64,000 nucleotides of DNA from contig JAFSWL010000022.1 in assembly GCA_017444525.1 (NCBI GenBank), forward strand, positions 73,879-137,878, given 5' to 3'. Below, piece by piece: positions 1,225-31,922 of this stretch; position 1 is the first letter of the stretch, and each line of letters begins with the position of its first letter. Below the pieces are notes generated by a model. It ran no database searches and was not told the origin of the DNA. It saw only the letters and a list, made by a program, of their open reading frames with translations. A program made the position numbers and the translations under genes. This DNA is from Alphaproteobacteria bacterium. Its GTDB lineage: Bacteria; Pseudomonadota; Alphaproteobacteria; RF32; CAG-239.

Positions 1225-3180
1225 ATGAAAGCCATACGCTTTTTTGCAGTCTTTATCATCGGTTTGTTGCTGATTGCAATATTGAGTCGCTCTTTATGGT
1301 ATGTTGCACCGATTAAGTTTCCGCTCGAATTCGTTATTGATGCGGTAAAGTTTGATATTTTATGCATTATCGTCGGTTTTTATGTTTTATTCTGGGGAAT
1401 CGTTGCTATCATTTATTTGGCACGACACAAAATTTATAATAAATTATCCGCACAAAAATCCTTACATAGCTATATGTTTATATTGCCCTATGCCAAACCG
1501 TATTGGATCCGCACCTTATTGGCCATTGTTATTACCATACCTATTGGCACTATGGACGCAGTTATTGCTTGGTCTCTCAAACCTTTTATGGATGTAGTTT
1601 TGATAGAAAAACAAACCGGTTGGACAATGTATATTCCGCTGATGATTGTGGTTTTCAGCATTTTGCAGGCAGTTTTCACTTATATTGCAACTTATCTGAA
1701 TACTTGGGTAGGAAGCCGAATATCTTTGGATTTAAAGCGCAAGCTGTTCAATACTTTACTGCATCGCGATGCTACTTTTTTTGATAAAAACAATTCCGGA
1801 TTTGTCTTGATGCGTTTCAATCAAGATGCCGAATCGGCATGCGGCGGCCTCTTAAACAGTATGCGTCTGTTTTCAACGCGTTTCTTTTCTTCATTATCGC
1901 TCTTGGTTGTGCTTTTTTATAACTCATGGAAATTAGCTATTGTAGCAACTATCGTGTTATTCGGAGCATTGATGCCGCTGACAAAAGTCAAAAAGAGGCT
2001 CAATGCTGTGGTTTCCAAAGATACGGATTTGATGGCAAAAATTTATCGCGATTACAATGAAATTTTCAGTGGTAATCGTATCGTTACCGCCTATAATTTA
2101 TTTGATTTTTGTAAGAAGAAATTTACAAACAATATAAATAACGCCTTTGATATGACTCTACAGATGAAGAAGAAAACCGGAATAATTTCTCCGTTGATGC
2201 ACGTCATATCTTCATTCGGCATCGCCTTTGTTATATGGTTCGGTAGTTATTTAATAGTTTCTCATCAAATTACCGTCGGTAATTTTGCCTCGTTTGTTAC
2301 CTCACTTGTAATGTTGTACAATCCGCTCAAATCCATCGGTAACAATGCAAGTAATATCGCTGTTTCTTTAATGGCTGTAGACCGTGTGTCAGATCAATTG
2401 AGCGCTGTCGATAAAATCAAAAACAAACCTGATGCCGTGGAGCTGAAAAAATGCCGCGGTGAAATCAGTTACAAAGATGTTTCTTTTGCCTACGTTAAAA
2501 ATAAACCGGTTTTACGCCATATTAATCTTGAGATAAAATCCGGAGAAACCATTGCATTGGTAGGTAATTCCGGCGGAGGAAAATCGACCATTTCCGTATT
2601 GTTGCCGCGTTTTTATGATGTTACCGCAGGTTCCATAACAATCGATAATATTGATATACGTAATATCCGATTAACTGATTTGCGTGATAATATCTCTATT
2701 GTATTTCAGGATAATTTCCTATTCGGCGGCACAATCAGAGAAAATATTTTACTTGGTCGTACCGATGTATCGGAAGAACGATTGAATGAGGTGATTAAGG
2801 CGGCATGTCTGGACGAGTTTATCGACTCTTTGGATAATGGTTTGGATACCGAAATCGGGGAGCGCGGTGTTCTAGTTTCGGGCGGACAAAAGCAGCGAAT
2901 CGCCATCGCGCGTGCGTTTATAAAAAATGCGCCGATTCTGATTTTGGATGAGGCTACGTCGGCGCTTGATAACAAATCGGAAAAAATCGTGCAGCAAGCA
3001 ATTGATAATTTGATGAAAAACCGCACCGTGTTGGTTATAGCACACAGGCTTTCTACGGTTCGCAATGCCGATTGTATTGCCGTGATTAACAACGGAGAAA
3101 TTGTTGAACGCGGCACTCATGAAGAGCTGTTGGCCAAGGGCGGAGAATATGCCGCACTTTATAAAACACAATTGAGCTAA
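1225..3180 (+). CDS. MsbA-like ABC exporter with fused permease and ATPase domains, and an N-terminal membrane extension
   Basis: Hydrophobic segments are followed by a Walker A motif GNSGGGKST, an ABC signature LSGGQKQRIAIARA and a Walker B motif [12 protein letters not shown]. Confidence 0.8.
   Translation: MKAIRFFAVFIIGLLLIAILSRSLWYVAPIKFPLEFVIDAVKFDILCIIVGFYVLFWGIVAIIYLARHKIYNKLSAQKSLHSYMFILPYAKPYWIRTLLAIVITIPIGTMDAVIAWSLKPFMDVVLIEKQTGWTMYIPLMIVVFSILQAVFTYIATYLNTWVGSRISLDLKRKLFNTLLHRDATFFDKNNSGFVLMRFNQDAESACGGLLNSMRLFSTRFFSSLSLLVVLFYNSWKLAIVATIVLFGALMPLTKVKKRLNAVVSKDTDLMAKIYRDYNEIFSGNRIVTAYNLFDFCKKKFTNNINNAFDMTLQMKKKTGIISPLMHVISSFGIAFVIWFGSYLIVSHQITVGNFASFVTSLVMLYNPLKSIGNNASNIAVSLMAVDRVSDQLSAVDKIKNKPDAVELKKCRGEISYKDVSFAYVKNKPVLRHINLEIKSGETIALVGNSGGGKSTISVLLPRFYDVTAGSITIDNIDIRNIRLTDLRDNISIVFQDNFLFGGTIRENILLGRTDVSEERLNEVIKAACLDEFIDSLDNGLDTEIGERGVLVSGGQKQRIAIARAFIKNAPILILDEATSALDNKSEKIVQQAIDNLMKNRTVLVIAHRLSTVRNADCIAVINNGEIVERGTHEELLAKGGEYAALYKTQLS
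2921..3180 (+). repeat. direct repeat copy 1: the 3' end of the ABC gene, duplicated at 6905-7165
   Basis: About 260 bp are near-identical to 6905-7165. The central roughly 140 bp are identical and the 3' tail has diverged. Confidence 0.8.
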
Positions 3181-3335: not shown

Positions 3336-3638
3336 ATGAGTGATGACCCCCACCCCTGTATGAAGGTGACGAGCCACATTCGCAATCTTATTAAAATGTC
3401 CGCCACGGCGGTTCATATTCAGGAACAAAACGTTTCGCTGATTTTTTCTGATGATAACAATTCATCAAATTTAATTCTGAATGCGGAAAATATTGCCGCG
3501 AAAAATCTTAATCATAATCAAAAACTTTCTTTCGATGATTTAAGACCGTATCTGCTTGCGCCTAAAAATTCGGTGCAACACTTGCGCTTGGTTATCAATA
3601 AATACGGTGTTTGTACTCGTAGATTTTCGAACAATTGA
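3336..3638 (+). pseudogene. truncated N-terminal paralog of the two downstream surface-protein genes
   Basis: It shares the RBS and the N-terminus MSDDPHPC with the gene at 3739. It aligns over about 90 aa (NAENIAA versus GAENISA, and FDDLRPYL versus YNDLRPNL) and then terminates. Confidence 0.5.
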
Positions 3639-3738: not shown

Positions 3739-4734
3739 ATGAGTGATGACCCCCACCCCTGTACGCAGGATAATAATTTTGACTTATGCAAACTTATATT
3801 GAAAACTTTGCTTTTAACCGCGACTACCGCGGCTTTTGCTCAGGAACAAAAAGTTCCGACAATTAAATCCGATGTCCGTTCGGACAGACTGACTTTGACG
3901 CTCGGCGCGGAAAATATCTCCGCCTTGACCATCGAACAAGATAAAACCGTATTCTACAACGATTTAAGACCGAATCTGACGGCGCGTGCCTGCAACAGGC
4001 GCGGCGATTACGCACAGCTTAAGGCGATGGAAGTCTTAATTCTGGAAGATAAAAACTTTACCCCGATTACTTCTAAATTTATGCTGGAACTCGGTAAACT
4101 GACCGGCAACGGCGGCACCGTTATTTTCAAGGCCGGCCGCGAAAAAACCGAAGGTGCGACCCTGTTTGACCACGCCCTCGAATATTATGCCGACTCCCGC
4201 GATGCCTATCAATTTGCCAACAGCGCGGAAAGATTGGTTTTCGGATATCAGAAAAATAATAAATTCATCGAGCTAGGTATTATCGGCAAAAACGGCGACG
4301 GATTTTTCGTTATACCGAATCCGAAACACGCAGATTTTTGGGCTAAAAGCGGTTTAACCCTCTTGGGAAAGAGCGGTGTTAGACTCAATGTAACCGGAGC
4401 AATGCGCTTCGGCAGCAAACACAAGCATTTACTGAGTTCCATCGGCATATCCGAGCGTTCCGGTTTCGGTATCAGAATGTTGGGTAATTATGATTTTGCC
4501 GAAAAGAAAGGCAATCTCGGATTGCGTGTATGGAAAGATTTTATGCACGGCTGGAAAATGATTACCGAAGCAGTATTCGATCAAAACCGCGATTTATATA
4601 TTCGCAACGGAGCTAACAAAGGCAGAGTGCAATTTTCCATAGAATACGGTAAACCGAAAAACCGGTCGAATTACTTTAATTTTACCGTTGCAGCCAATCT
4701 TGCAAGATCGCACATCGTGAGCGGCACCAAATAA
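3739..4734 (+). CDS. putative secreted or outer-membrane protein, paralog A, unknown family
   Basis: A strong RBS AGGAGG precedes it. A charged N-terminal extension of about 25 aa is followed by a hydrophobic region LLLTATTAAFA and then QEQ. It is about 45% identical to the next gene. Confidence 0.6.
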   Translation: MSDDPHPCTQDNNFDLCKLILKTLLLTATTAAFAQEQKVPTIKSDVRSDRLTLTLGAENISALTIEQDKTVFYNDLRPNLTARACNRRGDYAQLKAMEVLILEDKNFTPITSKFMLELGKLTGNGGTVIFKAGREKTEGATLFDHALEYYADSRDAYQFANSAERLVFGYQKNNKFIELGIIGKNGDGFFVIPNPKHADFWAKSGLTLLGKSGVRLNVTGAMRFGSKHKHLLSSIGISERSGFGIRMLGNYDFAEKKGNLGLRVWKDFMHGWKMITEAVFDQNRDLYIRNGANKGRVQFSIEYGKPKNRSNYFNFTVAANLARSHIVSGTK

Positions 4735-4765: not shown

Positions 4766-5758
4766 ATGACTGATACTTTAAACTTAAAAAACAATGATTT
4801 TCAACTTTTCAACGTTCGTAACTTTGTTATCAACACTCTGTTGCTGACGGCTACGGCGGCGGTTGCTCAGGAACAACAGATTACGCAAACAAATTCCGAT
4901 GATACCAAGGATCGGATGACCTTAGTTCTTGACGCAGCTAATATTGCTGGTTTGACTGTGGAAGAAGGAAAAACCACTTTCTATAATGACTTTGCTCCGT
5001 CATTTTTGGCGAGAGCCGAAAACAAACGCGGTGATTATGCCCAACTTTCCGGTCAAGAAGGCGTTATCTACAATAACGATTCATTCAAATCCTTAACCAT
5101 TAAGTTTATGGTTGAACTGGGTAAACAACTCGGCAATGGCGGCGTGATTACCTTCAAAACCGGTCGTGCCGCTACCGAAGCTGGAGCCGTATTTGATAAT
5201 CCGCTCAGTTATTATGCTGATGCTTATGATATCGGTCGTTTCGGTAATGCCAGCGACCGTATCGTTTTCGGCTACGAAAAAGGTGGACAATTTATTGAGC
5301 TCGGTATGATAGGCAGTGCCGGCGACGGCTTCTACGTTATACCGAATCCGAACAAATCAGATTTTTGGGCTAAGTGCGGCTTGACCCTCTTGGAAAAAAG
5401 CGGTGTCAGACTGGATATGACCGCCGCGGTGCGTACCGGTAGCAAACATCGCCAGTTGCTCAGTTCCATCGGTATTCATAGTCGTGCTTACGGCGGTACG
5501 ATTTTCGGTCATTACGATGCCAAACAGCATTGCGGCAACTTGGGCGCACGCGCTTGGTACGACTTGCGCCGCGGCTGGAAAACCATTGCCGAATCGGTAA
5601 TCACACAAAATCGTGATTTGTCGGTACGTGCCGGTGTCGGCAAAGGCGGAATGCAGTTTTCGCTGGAAATTTCCAAACCGCGCGAGCAACCGGTTGCCGT
5701 AAACTTTACGGTGGCCAGCAATTTGGCGCGTTCTCATACTATATGCGGTCACAAATAA
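4766..5758 (+). CDS. putative secreted or outer-membrane protein, paralog B
   Basis: It has the same architecture and is colinear with 3739-4734. Shared motifs include GDYAQL, FYVIPNP..DFWAK.GLTLL and NFTVA.NLARSH. Confidence 0.6.
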   Translation: MTDTLNLKNNDFQLFNVRNFVINTLLLTATAAVAQEQQITQTNSDDTKDRMTLVLDAANIAGLTVEEGKTTFYNDFAPSFLARAENKRGDYAQLSGQEGVIYNNDSFKSLTIKFMVELGKQLGNGGVITFKTGRAATEAGAVFDNPLSYYADAYDIGRFGNASDRIVFGYEKGGQFIELGMIGSAGDGFYVIPNPNKSDFWAKCGLTLLEKSGVRLDMTAAVRTGSKHRQLLSSIGIHSRAYGGTIFGHYDAKQHCGNLGARAWYDLRRGWKTIAESVITQNRDLSVRAGVGKGGMQFSLEISKPREQPVAVNFTVASNLARSHTICGHK

Positions 5759-6877: not shown

Positions 6878-6904
6878 TTATTTTGTTGCTTATTAACACA
6901 CCCT

Positions 6905-7165
6905 AAAAAAAATGCACCGATTCTGATTTTGGACGAGGCTACGTCGGCGCTTGATAACAAATCGGAAAAAATCGTGCAGCAAGCAATTGATAATTTGATG
7001 AAAAACCGCACCGTGTTGGTTATAGCACACAGGCTTTCTACAGTTCGCAATGCCGATTGTATTGCCGTGATTAACAACGGAGAAATTGTTGAGCGCGGTA
7101 CCCATGAGGAACTACTCGCCAAAGACGGCGAATATGCCGCGCTTTACAAAACTCAAATAGCTTAA
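6905..7165 (+). pseudogene. orphan duplicate of the ABC exporter 3' end, forming direct repeat copy 2
   Basis: It translates to [40 protein letters not shown]..., matching the C-terminus of the 1225-3180 product. It has no N-terminal part and no RBS. Confidence 0.65.
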
Positions 7166-7495
7166 TCGGTGTTTATATTGATATCCGCTAATTTTTACTA
7201 GACACTTTTAAATATCTGTCTTATGATGTTGACAGACAGGGAGGCCTGTTCGGGGTGTGGTAGCCTCTGCAATAGAAAGTATATAAAGACGTAAGGTTGC
7301 ACGTCTACCGGTCATGTATATATGATATGTGGCTGGAAGGCGGCAAAATACGCCGTTTTAAAACTACATATATATGCTCGAGCGATATGTGCCGGTTATG
7401 GCTAATATGTCGCACAATCCTATTGCATTGTTACCAACTTCCAGTCGCTTTTTTAAGCGGCTTTTTGTTTGTGGCTTGAACTAAAGGAAGTTGTG

Positions 7496-10447
7496 ATGAA
7501 AAAAAATAACAAAAAGATAAATTCAAATATAATCACCGTTCAAAACGCGGAAGGCGATGCTAATACAAAAGCGGAAATTGTGGTACAAAATCAGATAAAT
7601 TACACACCGAAAGTATCGGTGATTATTCCGGTGTATAATGTGGAACAATATCTGCGAGAGTGTCTGGACAGTGTGGTTAATCAGACACTGCGTGAAATAG
7701 AAATTATCTGCGTTGATGACGGCTCAACGGATTCTTCTTTGGATATTTTAAAAGAGTATGCTGCAAAAGACAAGCGCGTTACCGTTATCAAACAAGAAAA
7801 CTTGCATGCCGGAGTCGCACGCAACGCCGGTTTAGCAGTGGCTAAGGGAGAATATATTCATTTTTTGGATTCTGATGATTGGATTGATTTAGATACATAT
7901 CAACAACTGTATAACCTTATTCAGGAGAAACAAGCTGATTTTGTAAAATTTAAATCTTATACCTATGATAATGAAGAGCGCAAAATAGTTAGTTCCTATT
8001 TTACGAATATGAGCGCAGTTAATGACAATCATTTCGGAAGATTTAATGATTGGAAAACGGAATATCAGACATTAGTAAATGTTTCTGATGCCCCTTGGTC
8101 TGGCATATATAATCGTGATTTTTTGATTTCAAATCATATTTTATTTGATAATTTGTTATGCGCAAATGATACGTCTTTTTTCTATAGATGTCTAGTTTCT
8201 GCAAAAAAGATATATCTGGAGCAAAGACGTTTTGTTTATTATCGAATAAATAACTCTGCATCTTTAATAAATATCAGAGCATATAATTTTGATTGTCAAA
8301 TCAAGCAGTTTTTCATCATCCAAAATATTGTTAAAGATGTTCCAGATAAAATAAAAGAAGTATTTCGCAAACATTTAATAAGTGCTTTATTTTACAGATA
8401 TTCTCAATATAAAAATAATACGGAATTAGCTCCCAAAGCAAAACGAGAAATATATAGACAAATTAAAAGATTTATTTATTATGTATCTGAGATAGAAATT
8501 CCAGCGAAATATTTACCTTATTACTATGAAATACTGGAAAGACCTTTAATTTCTGTTATTATTCCTGTCTATAATGCAGAAAATTATTTGCACGAATGCT
8601 TAAACAGCGTTGTTAACCAGACTTTAAGAGAAATTGAAATCATTTGCGTTGATGACGGTTCTTCCGATTCATCTTTGAAAATATTGCAAAAATATAAAGA
8701 TATAGATTCTCGTATTAAAATAATTTCACAAAAAAATAAAGGCTCCGCATCTGCTCGAAATAATGGTATGAAAAACGCCTTAGGATGTTATATTGGATTT
8801 ATAGATAGTGATGATGTTGTTTCTGCAAATTATTTTGAAGCACTTTTAAATTGTGCTTTATCCAAAAGAGCAGACATCGCAGCAACATCCAACGTTCAAC
8901 TATTTAATACTCATGGTTTTCAATCCTTAAAAAACATGGGATTTCAAGGTAAAAAAATCATAGAATCGGTTGAAGATAAAGGCAATATTATTATAACCAC
9001 TGGGGTATCTTGTAATAAGATATATCGCAAAGGATTTCTAGATACTGCCGATATAAAGTGCTTAGAGATAAAGAATGCTGCAGAAGATAATTACTTTACT
9101 GATACAGCTATAATCGCTTCAAATAAAATAACCGTAGTAGATAATGCTATCTATTATTATAGAATTAATCAGACATCACAAACTCAAGTGCTTAAAAATA
9201 GAACACAATTTTTAATGACTAAAATTTATCAAATGATAGATAATTACATTATAAATCAGCATTTAACTCAAACAGAAAAAGACCAATGGTTAGAAATTAT
9301 AAACAAACGAAAAGTTAAAGACTTTATTTACTTTAAAAATACTATGCAATCCATATATATAAAAGATTTTCGAAAACATTTTATTTCAGTGTTTCCAAAT
9401 TTGAAAAAATATGTAGCAGAAATTATAGTTTCTCTCACTTCATATCCGGCGCGAATAAAGACCGTGCATCAAACAATTTATTCCTTGTTGACACAGAGTG
9501 TCAAAGCCGATAAGGTTATTTTATGGCTTGCAGAAGAACAATTCCCGAATAAAGAGAAGGATTTACCACAAGAATTGTTGTCTTTGACCAAAATAGGCTT
9601 AGAAATTGATTGGTATCATGATATAAAAAGTTATAAAAAATTAATTCCGTCGCTTAAAAAATATCCTGACGCAATCATTGTAACGGCTGATGATGATTTG
9701 CTTTATGATAAAAATTGGTTAGAAAAATTACTCCTTTCATATTGTAAAACAACAAATGCAATACATTGTCATCGCGCACATATGATGAACTTTGAGAAAG
9801 GAGTAGTATTGCCATATCGGCAATGGACGCAAAACATCAAACAAAACAAAACTCTTTATAATACGTTCCAGACCGGAGTTGGCGGTGTCCTTTATCCACC
9901 GCACAGTTTGTATAAAGATGTTTTAGATGAAGAAAAATTTATGCGCTTATGCCCGCAAGCCGATGATATATGGTTTTGGGCAATGGCTGTAAAAAACAAT
10001 ACACCTATTAAAGTGGTGGAAAATAATATTACAAAGCTTAACTATGTTGACGGCACACAAAAAACTGCTTTATGGCATAGCAATGTTATTGAGGGACAAA
10101 ATGATATACAACTGCAAAATGTATTAAAAGAATATCCCGAAATATTAGATAAACTGGATAAAACCATATCACCGACACAACCGAAAAATATTGAACAACC
10201 GCATAAAGCTGTTGTTTTATCAGCACATGTTCAGTCCGAACCACTTATTGCGCCGCAATTGAAAAAATATGTTTTATCGTACAATTTGTTCGGTTTTTTA
10301 CCACTTTTTACATACAGACGTCGGGGAGGAAAAGAGGTTTGGAAAATTTTAAGTATTCCATTCTGGAAAGTGCGTAAAGTGGAAAACGGCACAATCAAAA
10401 AATACTATTTTCTCAATTTACCACTGCTGAAAATATCCGATATGTAG
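7496..10447 (+). CDS. multidomain glycosyltransferase: two tandem GT2 (GT-A) domains plus a third transferase-like domain
   Basis: I moved the start to the ATG at 7496, which has an AAGGAAG RBS. Two paralogous blocks VSVIIPVYN..CL.SVVNQTLREIEIICVDDGS occur at aa 47 and aa 355. A third domain carries SLTSYPARI and ADDD. Confidence 0.75.
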   Translation: MKKNNKKINSNIITVQNAEGDANTKAEIVVQNQINYTPKVSVIIPVYNVEQYLRECLDSVVNQTLREIEIICVDDGSTDSSLDILKEYAAKDKRVTVIKQENLHAGVARNAGLAVAKGEYIHFLDSDDWIDLDTYQQLYNLIQEKQADFVKFKSYTYDNEERKIVSSYFTNMSAVNDNHFGRFNDWKTEYQTLVNVSDAPWSGIYNRDFLISNHILFDNLLCANDTSFFYRCLVSAKKIYLEQRRFVYYRINNSASLINIRAYNFDCQIKQFFIIQNIVKDVPDKIKEVFRKHLISALFYRYSQYKNNTELAPKAKREIYRQIKRFIYYVSEIEIPAKYLPYYYEILERPLISVIIPVYNAENYLHECLNSVVNQTLREIEIICVDDGSSDSSLKILQKYKDIDSRIKIISQKNKGSASARNNGMKNALGCYIGFIDSDDVVSANYFEALLNCALSKRADIAATSNVQLFNTHGFQSLKNMGFQGKKIIESVEDKGNIIITTGVSCNKIYRKGFLDTADIKCLEIKNAAEDNYFTDTAIIASNKITVVDNAIYYYRINQTSQTQVLKNRTQFLMTKIYQMIDNYIINQHLTQTEKDQWLEIINKRKVKDFIYFKNTMQSIYIKDFRKHFISVFPNLKKYVAEIIVSLTSYPARIKTVHQTIYSLLTQSVKADKVILWLAEEQFPNKEKDLPQELLSLTKIGLEIDWYHDIKSYKKLIPSLKKYPDAIIVTADDDLLYDKNWLEKLLLSYCKTTNAIHCHRAHMMNFEKGVVLPYRQWTQNIKQNKTLYNTFQTGVGGVLYPPHSLYKDVLDEEKFMRLCPQADDIWFWAMAVKNNTPIKVVENNITKLNYVDGTQKTALWHSNVIEGQNDIQLQNVLKEYPEILDKLDKTISPTQPKNIEQPHKAVVLSAHVQSEPLIAPQLKKYVLSYNLFGFLPLFTYRRRGGKEVWKILSIPFWKVRKVENGTIKKYYFLNLPLLKISDM

Positions 10448-10479: not shown

Positions 10480-10905
10480 TTTTATGAAATTTCATAAAAA
10501 TATGATTTTGATAAATTAACCATGTGTAGATTGTTTAGGCTGGTGATAAACCATAATGCTTCCCAAAAAGAAAGAACAACAATCTATAAATGTTTGGGAA
10601 TTCAAGTGTGGAAAATATATGAAACCACCGGAGAATCGGATAATATTGTAATTAAAACATATTACTTTTTGGGAATACCTGTTACCCAAATCACCGATGT
10701 TTCGGAATATTATTGTAATGAATACGATGAGCTAGATGAGATTTAGGTGCTATTGTCGCTTTATACTTACAAAAAGCGCTGTGGAAATCAGGTGTGGAAG
10801 ATTTTTGGGTTGCCAATATGGCGGATTTGTAAGATTTCTGATTCCGTAGCCATCAAATACTATTTATTTGACTTGCCGCTTTTTACAATTGAACAACAAG
10901 GCTGT
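10480..10905 (+). pseudogene. two decayed tandem copies of the glycosyltransferase 3'-terminal module
   Basis: The translations IYKCLGIQVWKIYE..IVIKTYYFLGIPVTQI and LYTYKKRCGNQVWKIFGLPIWRICKISDSVAIKYYLFDLPLFTI both match the GT C-terminus LFTYRRRGGKEVWKILSIPFWKV..IKKYYFLNLPLLKI. Confidence 0.5.
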
Positions 10906-10999
10906 AAATTTTAACATTATTAGAAAGTCATAAGTTCGTCACTTACAAAAAAGCACGTCATCATTGTTGATAACGTGCTTTTTGCTAATAAAGAGCCCT

Positions 11000-11980: not shown

Positions 11981-12541
11981 CTATTTTTCCTCCTGTTGAT
12001 GGTTAAGCGGTTTACAGCCGCAATAATTTTGATTGTATAAGTTTAATTCTTTGATAAGTGCAGCGCGTAGTTCCTGCATTCCGTGTTTGCGCCCCTCAAT
12101 TTCCAAATACGGAAAATCCGTTTCCGCCGCCGCTTTATATGCCGCCTCATTAACCTGTGCCAGATTTTTCCAGCGCGACACGCCTAAAACCGATGCCACC
12201 GCTGTATAACCGCTGGCTTTGGCATATTCCATTGCTCTTTTCAGGCGCATATAAAAGCAAATTGAACAGCGTTTGCCACGCTCCGGTTCGTTTTCCAAGC
12301 CGCGGGTTAATTCACACCATCGTTCGTTATCGTATTCCAGCTCAACAAACGGCACACCATAAAGTTTGCACAAACGCTCATTTTCATTGCGGCGCTTAAG
12401 ATATTCAGCATAAGGGCGAATGTTGGGATTATAAAACATCACCGCAAAGTCTTTCTTCTGTTCTGCCAGCGTTTTAATCACGGCGCACGAACACGGTGCA
12501 CAGCAAGAAAGCAGCAATATTTTTTCGGTTTTATCAGTCAT
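11981..12541 (-). CDS. queH: epoxyqueuosine reductase QueH (DUF208 family)
   Basis: The N-terminus LLLSCCAPCS and the conserved cysteines of the QueH family are present. The stop codon abuts the ldcA ATG. Confidence 0.65.
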   Translation of the reverse strand: MTDKTEKILLLSCCAPCSCAVIKTLAEQKKDFAVMFYNPNIRPYAEYLKRRNENERLCKLYGVPFVELEYDNERWCELTRGLENEPERGKRCSICFYMRLKRAMEYAKASGYTAVASVLGVSRWKNLAQVNEAAYKAAAETDFPYLEIEGRKHGMQELRAALIKELNLYNQNYCGCKPLNHQQEEK

Positions 12542-12625
12542 AATTCAAACATATAAAAAAAGCTAAAAAATGCAAGTCTAAAATTTTTGCTTGCCCTTTT
12601 ATTGCAAATTGTTTAGTATAATCTT

Positions 12626-12775
12626 GCAGGCAAGAGATTGTCTGCGGAGTGTCGAAGCTCCCAAGAAGAAAATAGCTCCTCATTGGTGGGGAGCCGGCGG
12701 AATATATTGAATACGCCGGACTGACTTCTTGCAGTTTCGAACTCCCGACCACTTTTTTGAGTGGTCTTTTTGTTT
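12626..12775 (+). ncRNA. structured small RNA, family copy A1
   Basis: A -10 TATAAT lies at 12617-12622. A 5' hairpin is followed by closing helix P1, variable helix P2, hairpin 2 and hairpin 3 with the invariant loop GAATATATTGAATA. An intrinsic terminator GACCAC-loop-GTGGTC plus a T-run ends it. Confidence 0.55.
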
Positions 12776-12854
12776 TAATTACAGAGTATGTAACAAAAAC
12801 ACCGCGTTAAATATTTTCGTTGCTTTTTGTTATATTTTCTGTAATATGGGAGTC

Positions 12855-13003
12855 GCAGGCAAGAGATTGTCTGCGGAGTGTCGTAGCTCCTTAAGAGAAA
12901 ATAACTCCTCTATTATGGGGAGCTGATGAATATATTGAATAAATCAGACTGTTCTCTTACAGTTACGAACTCCCCACCTTAAAGAAATTTAGGGTGGTTT
13001 TTT
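12855..13003 (+). ncRNA. structured small RNA, family copy A2
   Basis: The upstream promoter is TTGCTT, a 16-nt spacer, then TAATAT at 12830-12848. The architecture matches A1, with compensatory changes in P1, P2 and the hairpin 3 stem. The terminator is CCACC-loop-GGTGG plus a T-run. Confidence 0.55.
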
Positions 13004-13029
13004 AATATAACAAAAAGGAGTTCAAAAAT

Positions 13030-13254
13030 ATGAGTTCACATAATTTGCTTAGTAAAAAAGTTTTAACAGATATTTGTTCGCGGCTTAAACAATTGCGTCT
13101 TGAGCGTCAACTCAGCATAGAGGATTTGCAAGCCGCCACCCACCTTAAACTCAAAACATTAAAACGTATGGAAAATGGTAAGTGCTTACCTTTCAGATAT
13201 TATCGGCGTTTACTCAATTTTTACGGCAAAGAAATACGAATCGTGATTGAATAA
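13030..13254 (+). CDS. 74-aa XRE-family helix-turn-helix protein
   Basis: An AAAGGAG RBS precedes it. The HTH_XRE-like segment is LRLERQLSIEDLQAATHLKLKTLKRMENGK. It has a paralog at 16590-16814. Confidence 0.6.
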   Translation: MSSHNLLSKKVLTDICSRLKQLRLERQLSIEDLQAATHLKLKTLKRMENGKCLPFRYYRRLLNFYGKEIRIVIE

Positions 13255-13260
13255 AGCCAT

Positions 13261-16080
13261 TTATTTCAACTTGCCTTTCAGATATTTGCCGGTGAAGCTT
13301 TTTTTATTTTTCGCCACTTCCTCCGGTGTGCCTTGGGCTACAATCGTACCGCCGCCATCGCCGCCTTCCGGTCCGACATCAACAATATAATCCGCCATTT
13401 TTATCACATCGAGATTATGTTCAATCACCACTACGGTATTACCCTGTTCTACCAACATTTCCAAAACGTCAAGCAAATGTTGAATATCTTCAAAATGCAA
13501 ACCGGTTGTCGGCTCGTCTAAAATATACAAAGTTTTACCGGTGGCTTTTTTGCTAAGTTCTTTAGAGAGTTTGATGCGTTGCGCCTCGCCTCCGGAAAGT
13601 GTCGGTGCCGGCTGTCCGAGTTTAACATAACCCAAACCCACACGGCGCAATAAATCCAACCGCCGTTTTATTGCCGGAATATTCTCAAAAAACTTGTAAG
13701 CGTCGTCAATTGTCATATCCAAAACATCGGCAATCGACTTATCCTTAAATTTGATTTCAAGAGTTTCGCGGTTGTAGCGGGTACCATGGCAGGCATCGCA
13801 CGGAACATACACGTCCGGCAAAAAGTTCATCTCGATTTTCATTACGCCGTCACCTTTGCAGGCCTCGCAACGACCGCCGGCAACATTAAACGAAAAATAG
13901 CCCGAAGTATAGCCGCGCGCTTTAGCCTCCGGCAATTCGGCAAACCAATCGCGGATATTGGTAAACACACCGGTATAAGTTGCCGGATTAGAACGCGGCG
14001 TGCGCCCTATCGGCGATTGGTCAATATCAATCACCTTATCGATATTTTCCAAGCCGATGAGTTTATCATACGGCCCCGGCGGCACACGAGAGCCGTTCAT
14101 TTCTTTATCCACCGCCTTAAACAGCGTTTCTAAAATCAGCGAAGATTTACCGCTGCCGGAAATACCGGTAACACAAGTAAACGTGCCAAGCGGTATTTTT
14201 AAATCAACATTTTTCAAATTGTTGGTGCGCGCACCTTTGAGCTCCAAAAATTTACCGTTTCCCTTGCGGCGAATCGGCGGCAAGGCAATTTCTTTTTCAC
14301 CATTCAAATATTTGGCAGTGAGGCTGTTCGGATTATGCAAAACCTCGTCAACCGTGCCGGCGGCGGTAACTTCCCCGCCCAAAGTGCCGGCAAGCGGTCC
14401 CATATCCACCAGATAATCGGCGGCGCGCATGGCATCTTCATCATGTTCCACTACAATCACGGTATTGCCGATATCACGCAGACGGCGCAGACTGTCGAGA
14501 AGTTTATCATTATCGCGCTGGTGTAAACCGATGGAAGGCTCATCCAAAACGTACATCACGCCGGTTAAACCCGTACCGATTTGTGAAGCCAAGCGAATCC
14601 GTTGAGCCTCACCGCCGGAAAGAGTTCCCGACTGGCGCGACAAAGTCAGATAATCAAGCCCGACATTATTCAAAAAGCTTAATCTTTCGCGGATTTCTTT
14701 TAATATTTTGCGGGCAATTTCCTGCTTTTGCGGAGTTAATGTTGCCTCAACATTATCAAACCACTCCAACGCTTGTTTAATTGACATATTGCTGGCATCA
14801 ATAATATCTAAACCGGCAATTTTAACCGCCAAAGCCTCCTGTTTAAGCCGTTTGCCGTGGCAAACTTCACAAGGAGCGGCCGATTGATAATGCGAAAGCT
14901 CATCACGCACCGCTGCCGAATCGGTTTCCACAAAACGGCGTTCTAAATTAGGAATCACTCCTTCAAACGGTTTATCCGATACCCATTTGGAATAAACCAT
15001 CGGCACGCAGCGATTACCTGAGCCGTAGAGTATTGTTTCTTGTGCATACTCTGGCAAGTCTTTCCACGGAGTTTTGTTGGATATATCAAGATATTCACAT
15101 AAAGAATTTAAGGTCTGGCGATAAAAAATCGAATGACTGCTGACCGACCACGGGGCAATCGCTCCGCCTGCCAGACTCAGATTTTCATTCGGCACCACCA
15201 ACTCCGGATCCATATATAAACTGGCGCCCAAACCACCGCAATGCGGACAAGCCCCCTGCGGATTGTTGAACGAAAACAACCGCGGTTCAATCTCCTCGAT
15301 CGTAAATCCCGATACCGGACAGGCAAATTTAGAAGAAAACGTAGTGCGTGATTTATCACTCATATTTTCGACATACAATAAGCCGTCACTCAATTTTAAG
15401 GCGGTTTCCACCGATTGCGCCACGCGGGTTTGAATCCCCTCTTTTATCACAATGCGGTCAATTACCACTTCAATATTATGTTTAATATTTTTGTTCAAAT
15501 TCGGCAATTCTTCAATGTTATAAATCTCGCCATCTATATCTAAGCGCTGAAAGCCTTTTTTCTGCAATTCGGCAAATTCTTTTTTAAACTCGCCTTTTTT
15601 ACCTCGAGCAATCGGCGAAAGTAAAATAAGTTTTGAGCCTTGCGGGTATTCCAAAATTTTATCAACCATTTGGGTTAAAGACTGAGCTTCAATCGGCAAT
15701 CCTGTTGCCGGCGAATACGGAGTGCCGGCACGCGCCCACAGCAAACGCATGTAGTCATATATTTCCGTTATAGTACCGACCGTTGAACGCGGATTATGAG
15801 AAACAGTTTTCTGTTCAATTGAAATTGCCGGAGATAGACCCTCTATCGAATCGACATCAGGCTTATTCATCAAATCTAAAAATTGTCGGGCATAAACCGA
15901 AAGACTTTCAACATACCGACGTTGTCCTTCCGCATATATGGTATCAAATGCCAAAGAAGACTTACCCGAACCGGATAAGCCGGTAATAACCGTCAGCTTG
16001 TTTTTCGGAATATTAACATTCACGTTTTTCAAGTTGTGCTGGCGTGCGCCTTTGATTTCGATATATTTACTTTCTGCCAT
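13261..16080 (-). CDS. uvrA: excinuclease ABC subunit A
   Basis: It has two ABC ATPase modules ([10 protein letters not shown] and [10 protein letters not shown]) and zinc-finger cysteines. I moved the start to [11 protein letters not shown] at 16080, which has a GGAG RBS. Confidence 0.93.
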
Positions 16081-16181
16081 TTTTTTCTCCGTTGCGATTG
16101 ATATATACCAATTACATGCGTTTCGCAACTGTTTAATAAATAAAACTTGCTTTTTTAAGCAAACTGATTACAATGACTGTT

Positions 16182-16329
16182 GCAGATAAGAGATTGTTTG
16201 CGGAGTATCCTAACTCCTTCCATAATATATAAACTCCTCAATGGTGGGGAGCCGGTTGAATATATTGAATAGACCGGACTGTTTATGGACAGTTAGGAAC
16301 TCCCGACCACTTTTTTGAGTGGTCTTTTG
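16182..16329 (+). ncRNA. structured small RNA, family copy B1
   Basis: It has the same architecture as A1 and A2. P1 carries a C-G versus G-C swap and P2 is a new but still complementary pair UCCAUAA/UUAUGGA. The terminator GACCAC...GTGGTC is followed by a T-run. Confidence 0.55.
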
Positions 16330-16411
16330 TTTTGATTACAGAACGTCTAACAAAGGTGATACCTTAAATATTTTCGTTGCTTTTTGTTATATTTTCTGTA
16401 ATATGGGAGTC

Positions 16412-16558
16412 GCAGATAAGAGATTGTCTGCGGAGTGTCGAAGCTCTACCAATAGAAAATAACTCCTCGCTGGTGGGGAGCCGGTTGAATATATTGAATA
16501 GACCGGACTGACTATTGGCAGTTTCGAACTCCCGACCACTTTTTGAGTGGTCTTTTTG
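16412..16558 (+). ncRNA. structured small RNA, family copy B2
   Basis: Its promoter TTGCTT, a 16-nt spacer, then TAATAT is identical to that of A2. P2 is CCAAUAG/CUAUUGG. It ends in the same terminator. Confidence 0.55.
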
Positions 16559-16589
16559 TTTTGATAACTGCAAAAAGGAGTTCTGAAAA

Positions 16590-16814
16590 ATGAGTACGCA
16601 TAATCTGCTCAGCAAAGAAGTTTTAACGGAAATTTGCGCACAATTTAAACAGTTAAGAATTGAACATCAACTCAGTATCGAGGAATTGCAAATCGCCACA
16701 AACCTTAGCCTCAAAGTATTAAAACGCATGGAAAACGGCAAATGTATGCCTTTCAGATATTATCGACGTTTGCTGGAATTTTATGGTAAAAAAGCTCGAG
16801 TTGTAATTGAATAA
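16590..16814 (+). CDS. 74-aa XRE-family helix-turn-helix protein, paralog of 13030-13254
   Basis: It is about 70% identical to the product of 13030-13254 over its whole length, and it has the same RBS and the same upstream RNA pair. Confidence 0.6.
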   Translation: MSTHNLLSKEVLTEICAQFKQLRIEHQLSIEELQIATNLSLKVLKRMENGKCMPFRYYRRLLEFYGKKARVVIE

Positions 16815-31366: not shown

Positions 31367-31825
31367 ATGAGACATGGTGATGCACATAGAAAATTTAATA
31401 TGCCGAAAAGCCAAAGAAGAGCTTTGTTCTCTAATTTGACCGGTGCATTGTTGACGCACGAACAAATTACCATTACTTTGACCCGTGCAAAGGAACTTCG
31501 TACTTTTGCCGATAAAATGATTACTTATGCAAAAAAAGGTGATTTAAACAGTCGCCGTTTGGCTGCAGGTTTCTTGCGCAACGATGAAGTTGTTTCCAAA
31601 CTTTTCTCTACTTTAGCCGAACGTTATAAGGAACGCAACGGCGGTTATACCCGTGTTCTGAAGTCAGGTTTCCGTTATGGCGACTGCGCTCCGATGGCAA
31701 TTATTGAATTGGTTGATCGTGATATTAACGCTAAAGGTGCTAAAGATTTGGCTCGCGTTGCTGCTGAAAAAGCTGCTGCAGCCGAAGCCGAAAAAGCAGA
31801 GAGCGAAGTTGCGGAAAGCAAATAG
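31367..31825 (+). CDS. rplQ: 50S ribosomal protein L17
   Basis: The N-terminus [24 protein letters not shown] and an Ala/Glu-rich C-terminal tail match L17. No rpoA lies upstream. Confidence 0.9.
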
Positions 31826-31846
31826 TTTTCTGAAACAAATGTATAA

Positions 31847-31876
31847 AAATGCCGCTTAAATAAAGCGGCATTTTTA
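31847..31876 (+). terminator. terminator hairpin after rplQ
   Basis: The hairpin GCCGCTTTAAATAAAGCGGC is flanked by an A-run and a T-run. Confidence 0.55.
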
Positions 31877-31887
31877 ATTACTCAAGT

Positions 31888-31922
31888 AAAATCCGCAAAC
31901 AATTCTCTTGCCTGCGGATTTT
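31888..31922 (-). terminator. trxA terminator hairpin carrying the 5' hairpin module of the RNA family
   Basis: A perfect 10-bp stem AAAATCCGCA/TGCGGATTTT is present. On the minus strand the sequence reads GCAGGCAAGAGAATTGTTTGCGGA, which matches the 5' module of the A1 and B1 RNAs. Confidence 0.45.

Follow-up and report, generated by a model that had tools for sequence, protein, structure and literature searches.

The stretch of DNA analysed here (the window) comprises 64,000 nucleotides (nt) of an Alphaproteobacteria genome of the GTDB lineage RF32; CAG-239 (assembly GCA_017444525.1, contig JAFSWL010000022.1, positions 73,879 to 137,878). It carries two cassettes, A and B, in each of which two repeated RNA units of ~150 nt lie 5' of an open reading frame (ORF) for a 74-amino-acid (aa) helix-turn-helix (HTH) protein of the XRE family. 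A terminator-like hairpin with a T-run closes every unit. The features are listed below in window coordinates; H1, P1, Pv, P3 and P4 are helices of the RNA, MFE is the minimum free energy in kcal/mol with its z-score, and the promoter-like elements and Shine-Dalgarno (SD) sequences were read from the sequence.

12591..12619, + strand: putative promoter-like element of U1 (TTGCCC, 17-nt spacer, TAGTAT), ending 6 nt 5' of H1
12626..12772, + strand: RNA unit U1, distal unit of cassette A, with H1, P1, Pv, P3, P4, CUCC tail and intrinsic terminator (stem 12747-12766); covariance model 140 bits; MFE -68.5, z -6.4
12820..12847, + strand: promoter-like element of U2 (TTGCTT, 16-nt spacer, TAATAT), ending 7 nt 5' of H1
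12855..13003, + strand: RNA unit U2, proximal leader of XRE copy A, with terminator stem 12974-12997 and T-run; covariance model 133 bits; MFE -61.8, z -7.9
13017..13020, + strand: SD sequence GGAG of XRE copy A
13030..13254, + strand: XRE-family HTH protein, copy A, 74 aa, ATG start; ORF call, Pfam, AlphaFold model and fold matches
13261..16128, - strand: uvrA, a housekeeping gene between both cassettes, given for context; ORF, with UvrA Pfam domains in the orthologues of relatives
16147..16174, + strand: promoter-like element of U3 (TTGCTT, 16-nt spacer, TACAAT), ending 7 nt 5' of H1
16182..16329, + strand: RNA unit U3, distal unit of cassette B, with terminator stem 16305-16324; covariance model 136.7 bits; MFE -61.0, z -6.6
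16377..16404, + strand: promoter-like element of U4 (TTGCTT, 16-nt spacer, TAATAT), ending 7 nt 5' of H1, within a 96% identical block (16364-16446)
16412..16558, + strand: RNA unit U4, proximal leader of XRE copy B, with terminator stem 16534-16552; covariance model 140.1 bits; MFE -61.9, z -7.1
16577..16580, + strand: SD sequence GGAG of XRE copy B
16590..16814, + strand: XRE-family HTH protein, copy B, 74 aa, ATG start; ORF call, Pfam and alignment with copy A

The promoter-like hexamers (TTGCYY, a spacer of 16-17 nt, TAnnAT) are located 6-7 nt before H1 in all four window units. Each unit folds alone into the nested structure described below plus its terminator, with MFE values from -61 to -68.5 kcal/mol and z-scores from -6.4 to -7.9, and the 19-mer core of the repeat gave four matches in the window against 0.02 expected. 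A first-pass annotation of this DNA, made from the sequence alone, had placed the terminator of the second unit about 25 nt before each ORF, and this was borne out: the proximal T-run ends ~26 nt (copy A) or ~27-32 nt (copy B) before the ATG. The spacer contains the SD sequence only and, at ~26-30 nt, is too short to leave room for a separate sigma-70 promoter. The promoter-proximal blocks of U2 and U4 (12807-12889 and 16364-16446, 83 nt) are 96% identical, compared with 77% for the XRE ORFs, which suggests gene conversion or a conserved operator.

The structure of the RNA was read from an anchored parse of 109-111 non-redundant units that is independent of any covariance model. From 5' to 3', the elements are H1, GGNG, the P1 5' strand, CNCC, the Pv 5' strand, an A-rich joiner, hairpin P3 (UCCNC...GNGGAG), hairpin P4 (loop AAUAUAUUGAAUA), ACUG, the Pv 3' strand, CAG, the P1 3' strand, the CUCC tail, the terminator, the SD sequence, and the ATG. 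In this parse, all helices paired far better than mismatched-partner controls. Because the offset of Pv varies between units, a fixed-register MAFFT alignment was unsuitable, and a covariance model was built instead from 31 same-register units; it re-found the copies, of which 106 were aligned. Across these 106 copies, 95.5% of the cells of the nested fold H1-P1-Pv-P3-P4 were paired, in comparison with 67.3% after shuffling and about 43% (33-45%) when the partners were slid, and 29 of its 31 pairs vary on both sides. The covariation score was 0.724 against 0.216, and none of 500 shuffles reached the observed value on any measure. Compensatory changes were found in every helix, and the P4 loop element AATATATTGAATA hardly varies within the family.

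The P3 3' arm has a second complementary partner, made up of the CUCC tail and the nucleotides next to it on the 3' side. Column 97, located in this arm, covaries with its P3 partner (UG 54, GC 20, AU 14, CG 7, UA 4) and also with tail column 163 (GC 61, CG 19, UA 13, AU 3), 95% of the cells of the alternative helix being paired; the model-independent parse agrees on the covariation between the P3 3' arm and the tail. Since one arm covaries with two partners and one of these pairings runs into the terminator stem, P3, the antiterminator, and the terminator are mutually exclusive. The 5' arm of the terminator starts 4-5 nt past the C of CUCC in most units, and the alternative helix spans 6-10 base pairs (bp; seven contiguous bp in U2), so that it shares at least 2 nt, and in most cases 2-6 nt, with the terminator 5' arm. 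This overlap with the base of the terminator stem gives the geometry of an antiterminator; the leader thus combines an intrinsic terminator with a mutually exclusive antiterminator, as supported computationally. The alternative fold also allows GGNG to pair with CNCC, where position 3 covaries (AU 58, UA 31), and ACUG to pair with CAG, which is invariant; the two resulting hairpins would present the P1 5' strand and the Pv 3' strand in their loops. In addition, the SD flank GGAG(U/C)U (13017-13022 and 16577-16582) is complementary to A(A/G)CUCC at the P1 3' end and tail in 98% of the units (AU 56, GC 33, GU 13). This complementarity hints at an added, SD-sequestering translational layer, and does so weakly, as the covariation is essentially two-state.

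The distribution of the RNA was assessed in one genome per species using the exact pattern GGAG-N5-9-AATATATTGAATA-N4-6-GACTG. At least 117 stretches carried this core, almost all of them from metagenome-assembled genomes (MAGs) of uncultured rumen and gut Alphaproteobacteria. Among the matches listed, ~47 assemblies were represented (counted by contig prefix), with up to at least nine loci per assembly, and the carriers included the human-gut MAGs UMGS63, HGM16772, and HGM16780. The single match outside Alphaproteobacteria among those listed, in a Gracilibacteria sequence (L089), was discarded as a chance pattern match, since the covariance model gave no match there. No match to the core was found among 2.9 million viral contigs. 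The RNA, whose scale the first-pass annotation did not recognise, is a large multi-copy family and not a local pair. Two units per cassette, as in both cassettes of the window, are an exception in the family, where most loci hold a single unit. Tandem arrays of 2-4 units occur in the window lineage (L079, L132), L110, and L120; each of their units has its own promoter-like element and strong terminator, no ORF lies between units, and the upstream units keep compensatory changes. The longest array described (L120, 2396-3569) has four tandem leader units, each with a promoter-like element and a terminator, followed by one XRE ORF; three units belong to the GGUG subtype and the last to the GGAG subtype, the loop reads AAUAUGUUGAAUA in two of them, and a third has an expanded P4. 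The window is 99.9% identical to metagenome contig L132 and ~89% identical to rumen MAG RUG10918, in which both cassettes are also found around uvrA.

An ORF or another RNA unit follows nearly every evaluable copy on the same strand. For 101 copies the downstream DNA was long enough, and behind 69 of these lies an ORF matching an XRE-family HMM (hidden Markov model), with its stop codon 303-325 nt past the core in most cases. The spacing is near-constant: 72 small ORFs start 70-90 nt past the core. One cluster of small XRE-like proteins (65-101 aa) takes in about 72 of 90 downstream ORFs, two encode a 164-aa HTH_3 (XRE) protein, and at least 19 encode a secreted cysteine-rich family of 240-330 aa. 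The small XRE proteins behind the leader share a median identity of 31% with copy A; the generic XRE positions and a C-terminal FYGKK..IV.E are conserved, and the recognition helix is not. The cysteine-rich ORFs start ~85-90 nt past the RNA core (L015, L022, L036, L053, L056, L058, L065, L066, L072, L077, L078, L086, L096, L100, L102, L113, and L123), and one assembly, BRZ_AG__bin71, has nine such loci behind the leader. Their products begin with a signal peptide, MKI[RK]FLL[IL]GTSLSLIP, continued by AQCVATQDCATLGYTETSC..G.KCPFGN.WAC, and gave no match in Pfam or NCBIfam.

The two 74-aa XRE-HTH paralogues had been reported at 13030-13254 and 16590-16814, and both were recovered as exact ORFs, 76% identical and 91% similar in a gap-free pairwise alignment. 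The families tested included Pfam HTH_3 (PF01381) and HTH_31 (PF13560), with the curated gathering score as the criterion. Copy A scored above it for HTH_31 (31.5 bits, cut-off 27), HTH_25 (29.1, cut-off 24.6), and HTH_3 (28.3, cut-off 23), and copy B slightly under it for the same three families (25.0, 23.3, and 17.3, respectively). Modelling of the protein, which the first-pass annotation had recommended, yielded an ordinary small XRE domain: the AlphaFold model of copy A (pLDDT 78.8) is a compact four-helix bundle of this type (helices 9-25, 30-37, 41-48, and 55-64) with a short C-terminal segment of low confidence. The best Foldseek matches were HipB, C.Esp1396I, C.AhdI, and the DdrO N-terminal domain (template modelling (TM) scores of 0.66-0.76), and HigA antitoxins were also among the top structural matches. 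On this model, the protein is a standard small XRE domain, closest to HipB and to the controller proteins of restriction-modification (R-M) systems, and sequence-specific DNA binding is predicted. The motif PFRYYRRLL.FYGK..R.VIE, described earlier as a conserved tail added after the HTH core, is present in both proteins; its status as an add-on did not stand, since the HTH_3 alignment reaches residue 70 of 74 and the model has four helices, so that the segment corresponds to the last helix and the C-terminal strand of an ordinary XRE domain.

A search for further copies of the protein, asking whether each is flanked by the RNA, had been set as a test beforehand. Relatives were collected by protein alone (10 clusters), by profile search (64 clusters, 44-99% identity), and by a metagenome scan (5 loci), and a relative was evaluable if at least ~130 nt of upstream sequence were available; P0006 and P0051 fell outside this set. 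The RNA was found upstream in 13 of the 13 evaluable relatives (44-99% identity; P0001-4, P0007-10, P0037, P0044, and L127-L129). P0001 has a tandem RNA pair, P0010 a loop variant (AAUAUACUGAAUA), and P0044 an RNA cut by the contig end; the unit of P0009 (L135) is truncated to its 3' half alone, on a 711-bp contig. No RNA was detected upstream of a marginal match, L131 (43% identity over 37 residues). Genes similar only at the generic XRE level and lacking the RNA exist, as expected (for example, L032, 1120-1336). Homologues without the RNA were therefore not found within the narrow family, and the claim that these proteins occur only with the RNA holds for that family; its converse does not, as the RNA also precedes non-XRE genes. 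An IS110-family transposase (L142, 879-1592) was observed ~500 nt 3' of the XRE homologue P0044.

Helix Pv (12663-12669 paired with 12726-12732 in U1; columns 44-50 with 138-145 of alignment A4) is hypervariable and yet always paired. Unit pairs that are at least 95% identical elsewhere (98% in the other helices) show 61% identity in Pv, and 96 distinct Pv 5' strands were counted among 109 units. Two roles for it were tried and rejected. As locus-specific antisense seeds, the Pv strands showed no excess complementarity to 450 nt downstream and ~300 nt upstream relative to mismatched partners. As an address for the cognate XRE paralogue, Pv identity bore no relation to XRE identity, and the same Pv was found before proteins only ~25-30% identical.

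The first-pass annotation had offered two regulatory readings, with the RNAs as attenuators of the protein or the protein as a repressor of the RNA promoters. The first is supported by the position of the RNA as a 5' leader, the near-constant spacing, the lack of room for a separate promoter, and a covarying antiterminator that overlaps the terminator; the second may hold and is not required. Each cassette is thus rather probably a transcription-attenuation (riboswitch-like) leader module with a putative effector and the small XRE regulator as its output. The RNA structure, its place as a leader, and the exclusive pairings are shown by the data; what is said below of the promoter, of which fold turns the gene on, and of an effector and its identity is inferred. 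A sigma-70-like promoter would start transcription at H1 of the ~130-nt structured leader. In the nested fold, the long-range helices P1 and Pv would close a junction carrying hairpins P3 and P4 and leave the CUCC tail free, so that the adjacent intrinsic terminator could form and transcription would stop ~25 nt short of the XRE start codon. If the alternative fold formed instead, the P3 3' arm would pair with the CUCC tail and with 2-6 nt at the start of the terminator 5' arm, and with this antiterminator in place the polymerase would read on into the SD sequence and the XRE ORF. The nested, terminating fold would be the thermodynamic default, and for the gene to be on, the antiterminator fold would have to be favoured by co-transcriptional kinetics or by a putative effector, which may be a small molecule, a protein, or an RNA. 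The XRE protein, a predicted ordinary small dimeric DNA-binding regulator, would be the output of the switch, with no structural part in the RNA. The extra distal unit of each cassette, transcribed from a putative promoter of its own and closed by a terminator, would yield a free RNA that could titrate the effector or act in trans. As the same leader stands before many small XRE paralogues and secreted cysteine-rich proteins, these genes would form a regulon answering one common signal.

Several observations weigh against such a switch. At the decision point, the nested fold is favoured over the antiterminator conformer by 7-9 kcal/mol; the leader should therefore terminate by default and be read through under an effector or kinetic control, and read-through without an effector is hypothetical. 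The covariation of the alternative fold rests mainly on 2-3 variable positions, because the rest of the helix is invariant. In 50 of 94 family members, H1 begins 6-9 nt after a promoter-like -10 element; the promoter scores are no better than those of shuffled sequences. Every unit, the upstream tandem ones included, carries promoter-like hexamers and a strong terminator and so has the look of a stand-alone small RNA (sRNA), and the upstream tandem units cannot gate the ORF. Since these upstream units nevertheless stay under structural selection, an additional free-RNA role for them (decoy or trans-acting) is likely.

The alternative that survives best, a possible account to which we give about one chance in a handful or slightly more, takes the units as independent trans-acting sRNAs, or as RNAs sponging a protein or effector, which are parked 5' of XRE genes and reach them by incidental read-through; its milder version combines a cis leader with a free RNA. 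The promoter-like hexamers fixed 6-7 nt from H1, the strong intrinsic terminator of each unit, the arrays of 2-4 promoter-bearing units with no intervening ORF and with compensatory changes kept upstream, and the high stability of the nested terminated form all fit this account, and the conserved P4 loop could possibly serve as an sRNA seed. It does not explain the constant spacing to the start codon without room for another promoter, the ORF or further unit after nearly every evaluable copy, or the covariation of a tail pairing that overlaps the terminator; moreover, the variable strands have no complementary targets in the flanking DNA, the search having covered the local flanks.

It is unlikely that the XRE protein autoregulates its cassette by binding an operator in the RNA promoter, or the near-invariant AATATATTGAATA as a DNA element or RNA loop, to give an RNA-protein feedback module. 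Small XRE proteins such as HipB and the C-proteins regulate their own genes, and the fold matches to both, the proximal promoter blocks (96% identical over 83 nt versus 77% for the ORFs), and the nearly invariant P4 loop would be expected from such a module. However, the same leader and loop also stand before genes that encode no HTH protein, the XRE paralogues behind identical loops have a median identity of 31% and a recognition helix that is not conserved, and Pv identity does not track XRE identity. The stem presenting the loop covaries, which indicates selection at the RNA level. The palindrome AAUAUAUU of the P4 loop is disrupted in real copies (AAUAUACU in L130 and AAUAUGUU in L120), and its use as a palindromic operator, or as a kissing-dimer site, was rejected on these grounds.

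An origin of the XRE protein as the antitoxin of a toxin-antitoxin pair, or as a remnant Cro/CI-like prophage regulator or R-M controller with the RNA as part of the same mobile element, is largely excluded. The top structural matches (HipB and HigA antitoxins and R-M controller proteins) and the presence or absence of cassettes among close relatives are in its favour. Against a type II antitoxin of the HipB/HigA kind, no partner ORF was found in the window or in the relatives examined, the next genes being convergent uvrA and tyrS; against an R-M controller, the neighbours queH, uvrA, tyrS, anmK, and an ABC transporter do not form an R-M operon; and against a prophage immunity (CI/Cro) module, the neighbours are housekeeping genes in all contexts looked at and the RNA core is absent from the 2.9 million viral contigs. 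Finally, non-functional dispersed repeats resembling miniature inverted-repeat transposable elements, with coincidental XRE adjacency, would account for the multiple copies per genome (up to at least nine) and the variable insertion sites, and are contradicted by the covariation: compensatory changes occur in every helix, orientation and spacing to the ORF are fixed, and neither terminal repeats nor target duplications are evident at an empty site, which leaves this explanation with next to no probability.

Returning to the attenuation switch, a fuller version of it can be put forward tentatively and is, taken as a whole, doubtful. In this version, the leader would be an effector-sensing RNA switch of a new class (a riboswitch or a protein- or RNA-responsive element) with both folds conserved and covarying, which gates in concert rapidly diversifying small XRE regulators and secreted cysteine-rich proteins; the extra, promoter-bearing copies would act as free decoy or trans RNAs, and Pv would be kept different between paralogues by selection as an RNA 'identity' feature. 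We know of no precedent for an 'identity' feature of this kind.

The cassettes are flanked by queH, uvrA, tyrS, anmK, and an ABC transporter, with the convergent uvrA (7 nt away) and tyrS as the next genes, and housekeeping genes flank them in every relative context looked at. Among close relatives, cassettes are present or absent, and insertion sites vary. UBA3307 (L108, 1240-1320, against window 12513-13265) shares ~90% identity over queH and uvrA and is without cassette A; its queH-uvrA gap is 53 nt, with the RNA-like fragments TCTGCGG and CTATATTGAAT in the spacer and no evident terminal repeats or target duplications at the empty site. At a site like that of cassette B, the same genome has a different XRE paralogue behind a similar leader. 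Cassettes therefore turn over between close relatives.

Other features of the window were recorded in passing. A weak covariance-model match (26.4 bits) at 31797-31917 (- strand) is a solitary H1-like hairpin, GCAGGCAAGAGAAUUGUUUGC, whose loop AAGAGA(A)UU is that of H1 in the four units, with a TTGCAA promoter-like hexamer on its 5' side and a strong terminator, GCCGCUUUAUUUAAGCGGC, with a T-run on its 3' side. It was rejected as a fifth copy of the RNA, consisting only of the hairpin and the terminator, and may represent either a decayed unit or an independent small RNA. Direct repeats occur in the first 7 kb (2919-3171 with 6904-7156, 253 nt, 93%; 4237-4448 with 5264-5475, 212 nt, 75%), together with a three-copy family of 54-nt repeats (3400-3453, 3821-3874, and 4848-4901); all of these are probably repeated domains or paralogous genes. 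Two short ORFs (10522-10914) lie directly 3' of a glycosyltransferase-like gene for a 992-aa protein (7469-10447) and resemble the C-terminal ~40 residues of this protein (GKEVWKILSIPFWKVRK...KKYYFLNLPLLKI versus GNQVWKIFGLPIWRICK...IKYYLFDLPLFTI); they look like duplicated tail fragments of that gene.

No Rfam 15 family matched anywhere in the 64-kb window at gathering scores or overlapped the RNA at eight diverse family loci, and no description of the motif was found in the searchable literature. The RNA is a previously uncatalogued ~130-nt structured RNA. The family, its regulon, the promoter-bearing tandem units, and the hypervariable helix are new, the last two being unusual; attenuators and riboswitch-like leaders as such are already known. 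A survey of human microbiomes (Fremin and Bhatt 2021, PMC8040213) reported HTH_XRE as the domain most often located directly 3' of its candidate structured RNAs, with 15 such candidates. The XRE-linked candidates shown in that survey are from Firmicutes, with no mechanism proposed, whereas the present RNA is alphaproteobacterial. Its signature sequence was absent from the 200 supplementary files, of 408, that the search covered, and a prior listing under an anonymous identifier is possible. If the proposed switch is correct, it would provide a worked mechanistic example for the frequency of XRE genes behind such candidates. One RNA switch, in up to at least nine copies per genome, would then control small transcription factors and secreted cysteine-rich proteins in common uncultured rumen and gut Alphaproteobacteria, and would add a new member to the orphan switches, with an effector that merits a search. 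The covariance model is well defined and usable for annotating these MAGs.

Among known RNAs, the one match obtained in permissive scans was a weak resemblance of U1 (32.1 bits, gathering score 53) to sRNA-Xcc1 (RF02221), an integron-borne sRNA of Xanthomonas; the alignment takes in a closing stem and two hairpins and coincides with the antiterminator conformer. None of eight other diverse family members matched this model at E<=1, and the similarity in architecture was put down to chance: the match falls short of the gathering score, it does not recur, and the conserved loops differ. The AbcR1/2 and CcsR1-4 'cuckoo' RNAs of Alphaproteobacteria are structured, occur as tandem repeats, and bear C/U-rich motifs of the CUCC type; a small ORF is associated with the CcsR RNAs, which lie 3' of it and have anti-SD motifs in their loops. 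The present RNA resembles these arrays as tandem structured repeats with a CUCC motif in Alphaproteobacteria and differs from them in that its units lie 5' of the ORF, each has a terminator, and the antiterminator covaries; the AbcR and CcsR models of Rfam gave no match.

On the protein side, the XRE copies are like HipB antitoxins and R-M C-proteins in size (~70-80 aa), in the helical XRE fold (TM 0.66-0.76), and in having a segment after the last helix, which in HipB forms a dimer strand. They are unlike them in sequence (14-26% identity) and in the absence of adjacent toxin or R-M genes. The upstream RNA leader proposed to gate XRE expression is likewise not a feature of HipB and C-protein systems.

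The closest parallel is with terminating riboswitches and attenuators, in which an aptamer is joined to a terminator/antiterminator platform and which also occur in tandem forms, such as the glycine and tandem thiamine pyrophosphate riboswitches. The RNA shares with them a conserved structured 5' leader followed at once by an intrinsic terminator, an SD sequence, and an ORF; one strand with two exclusive, covarying partners, one pairing invading the terminator stem; and multiple copies per genome, control of a regulon, and the possibility of tandem units. Unlike them, its fold matches no Rfam 15 family, each tandem unit has a promoter-like element, the alternative fold reuses conserved 'aptamer' elements (the GGNG/CNCC and ACUG/CAG hairpins), Pv is hypervariable, and the controlled genes encode regulators and secreted proteins instead of metabolic functions. 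If the proposed switch holds, a multi-copy leader over regulators and surface or secreted proteins would stand nearer to second-messenger riboswitches than to metabolic ones.

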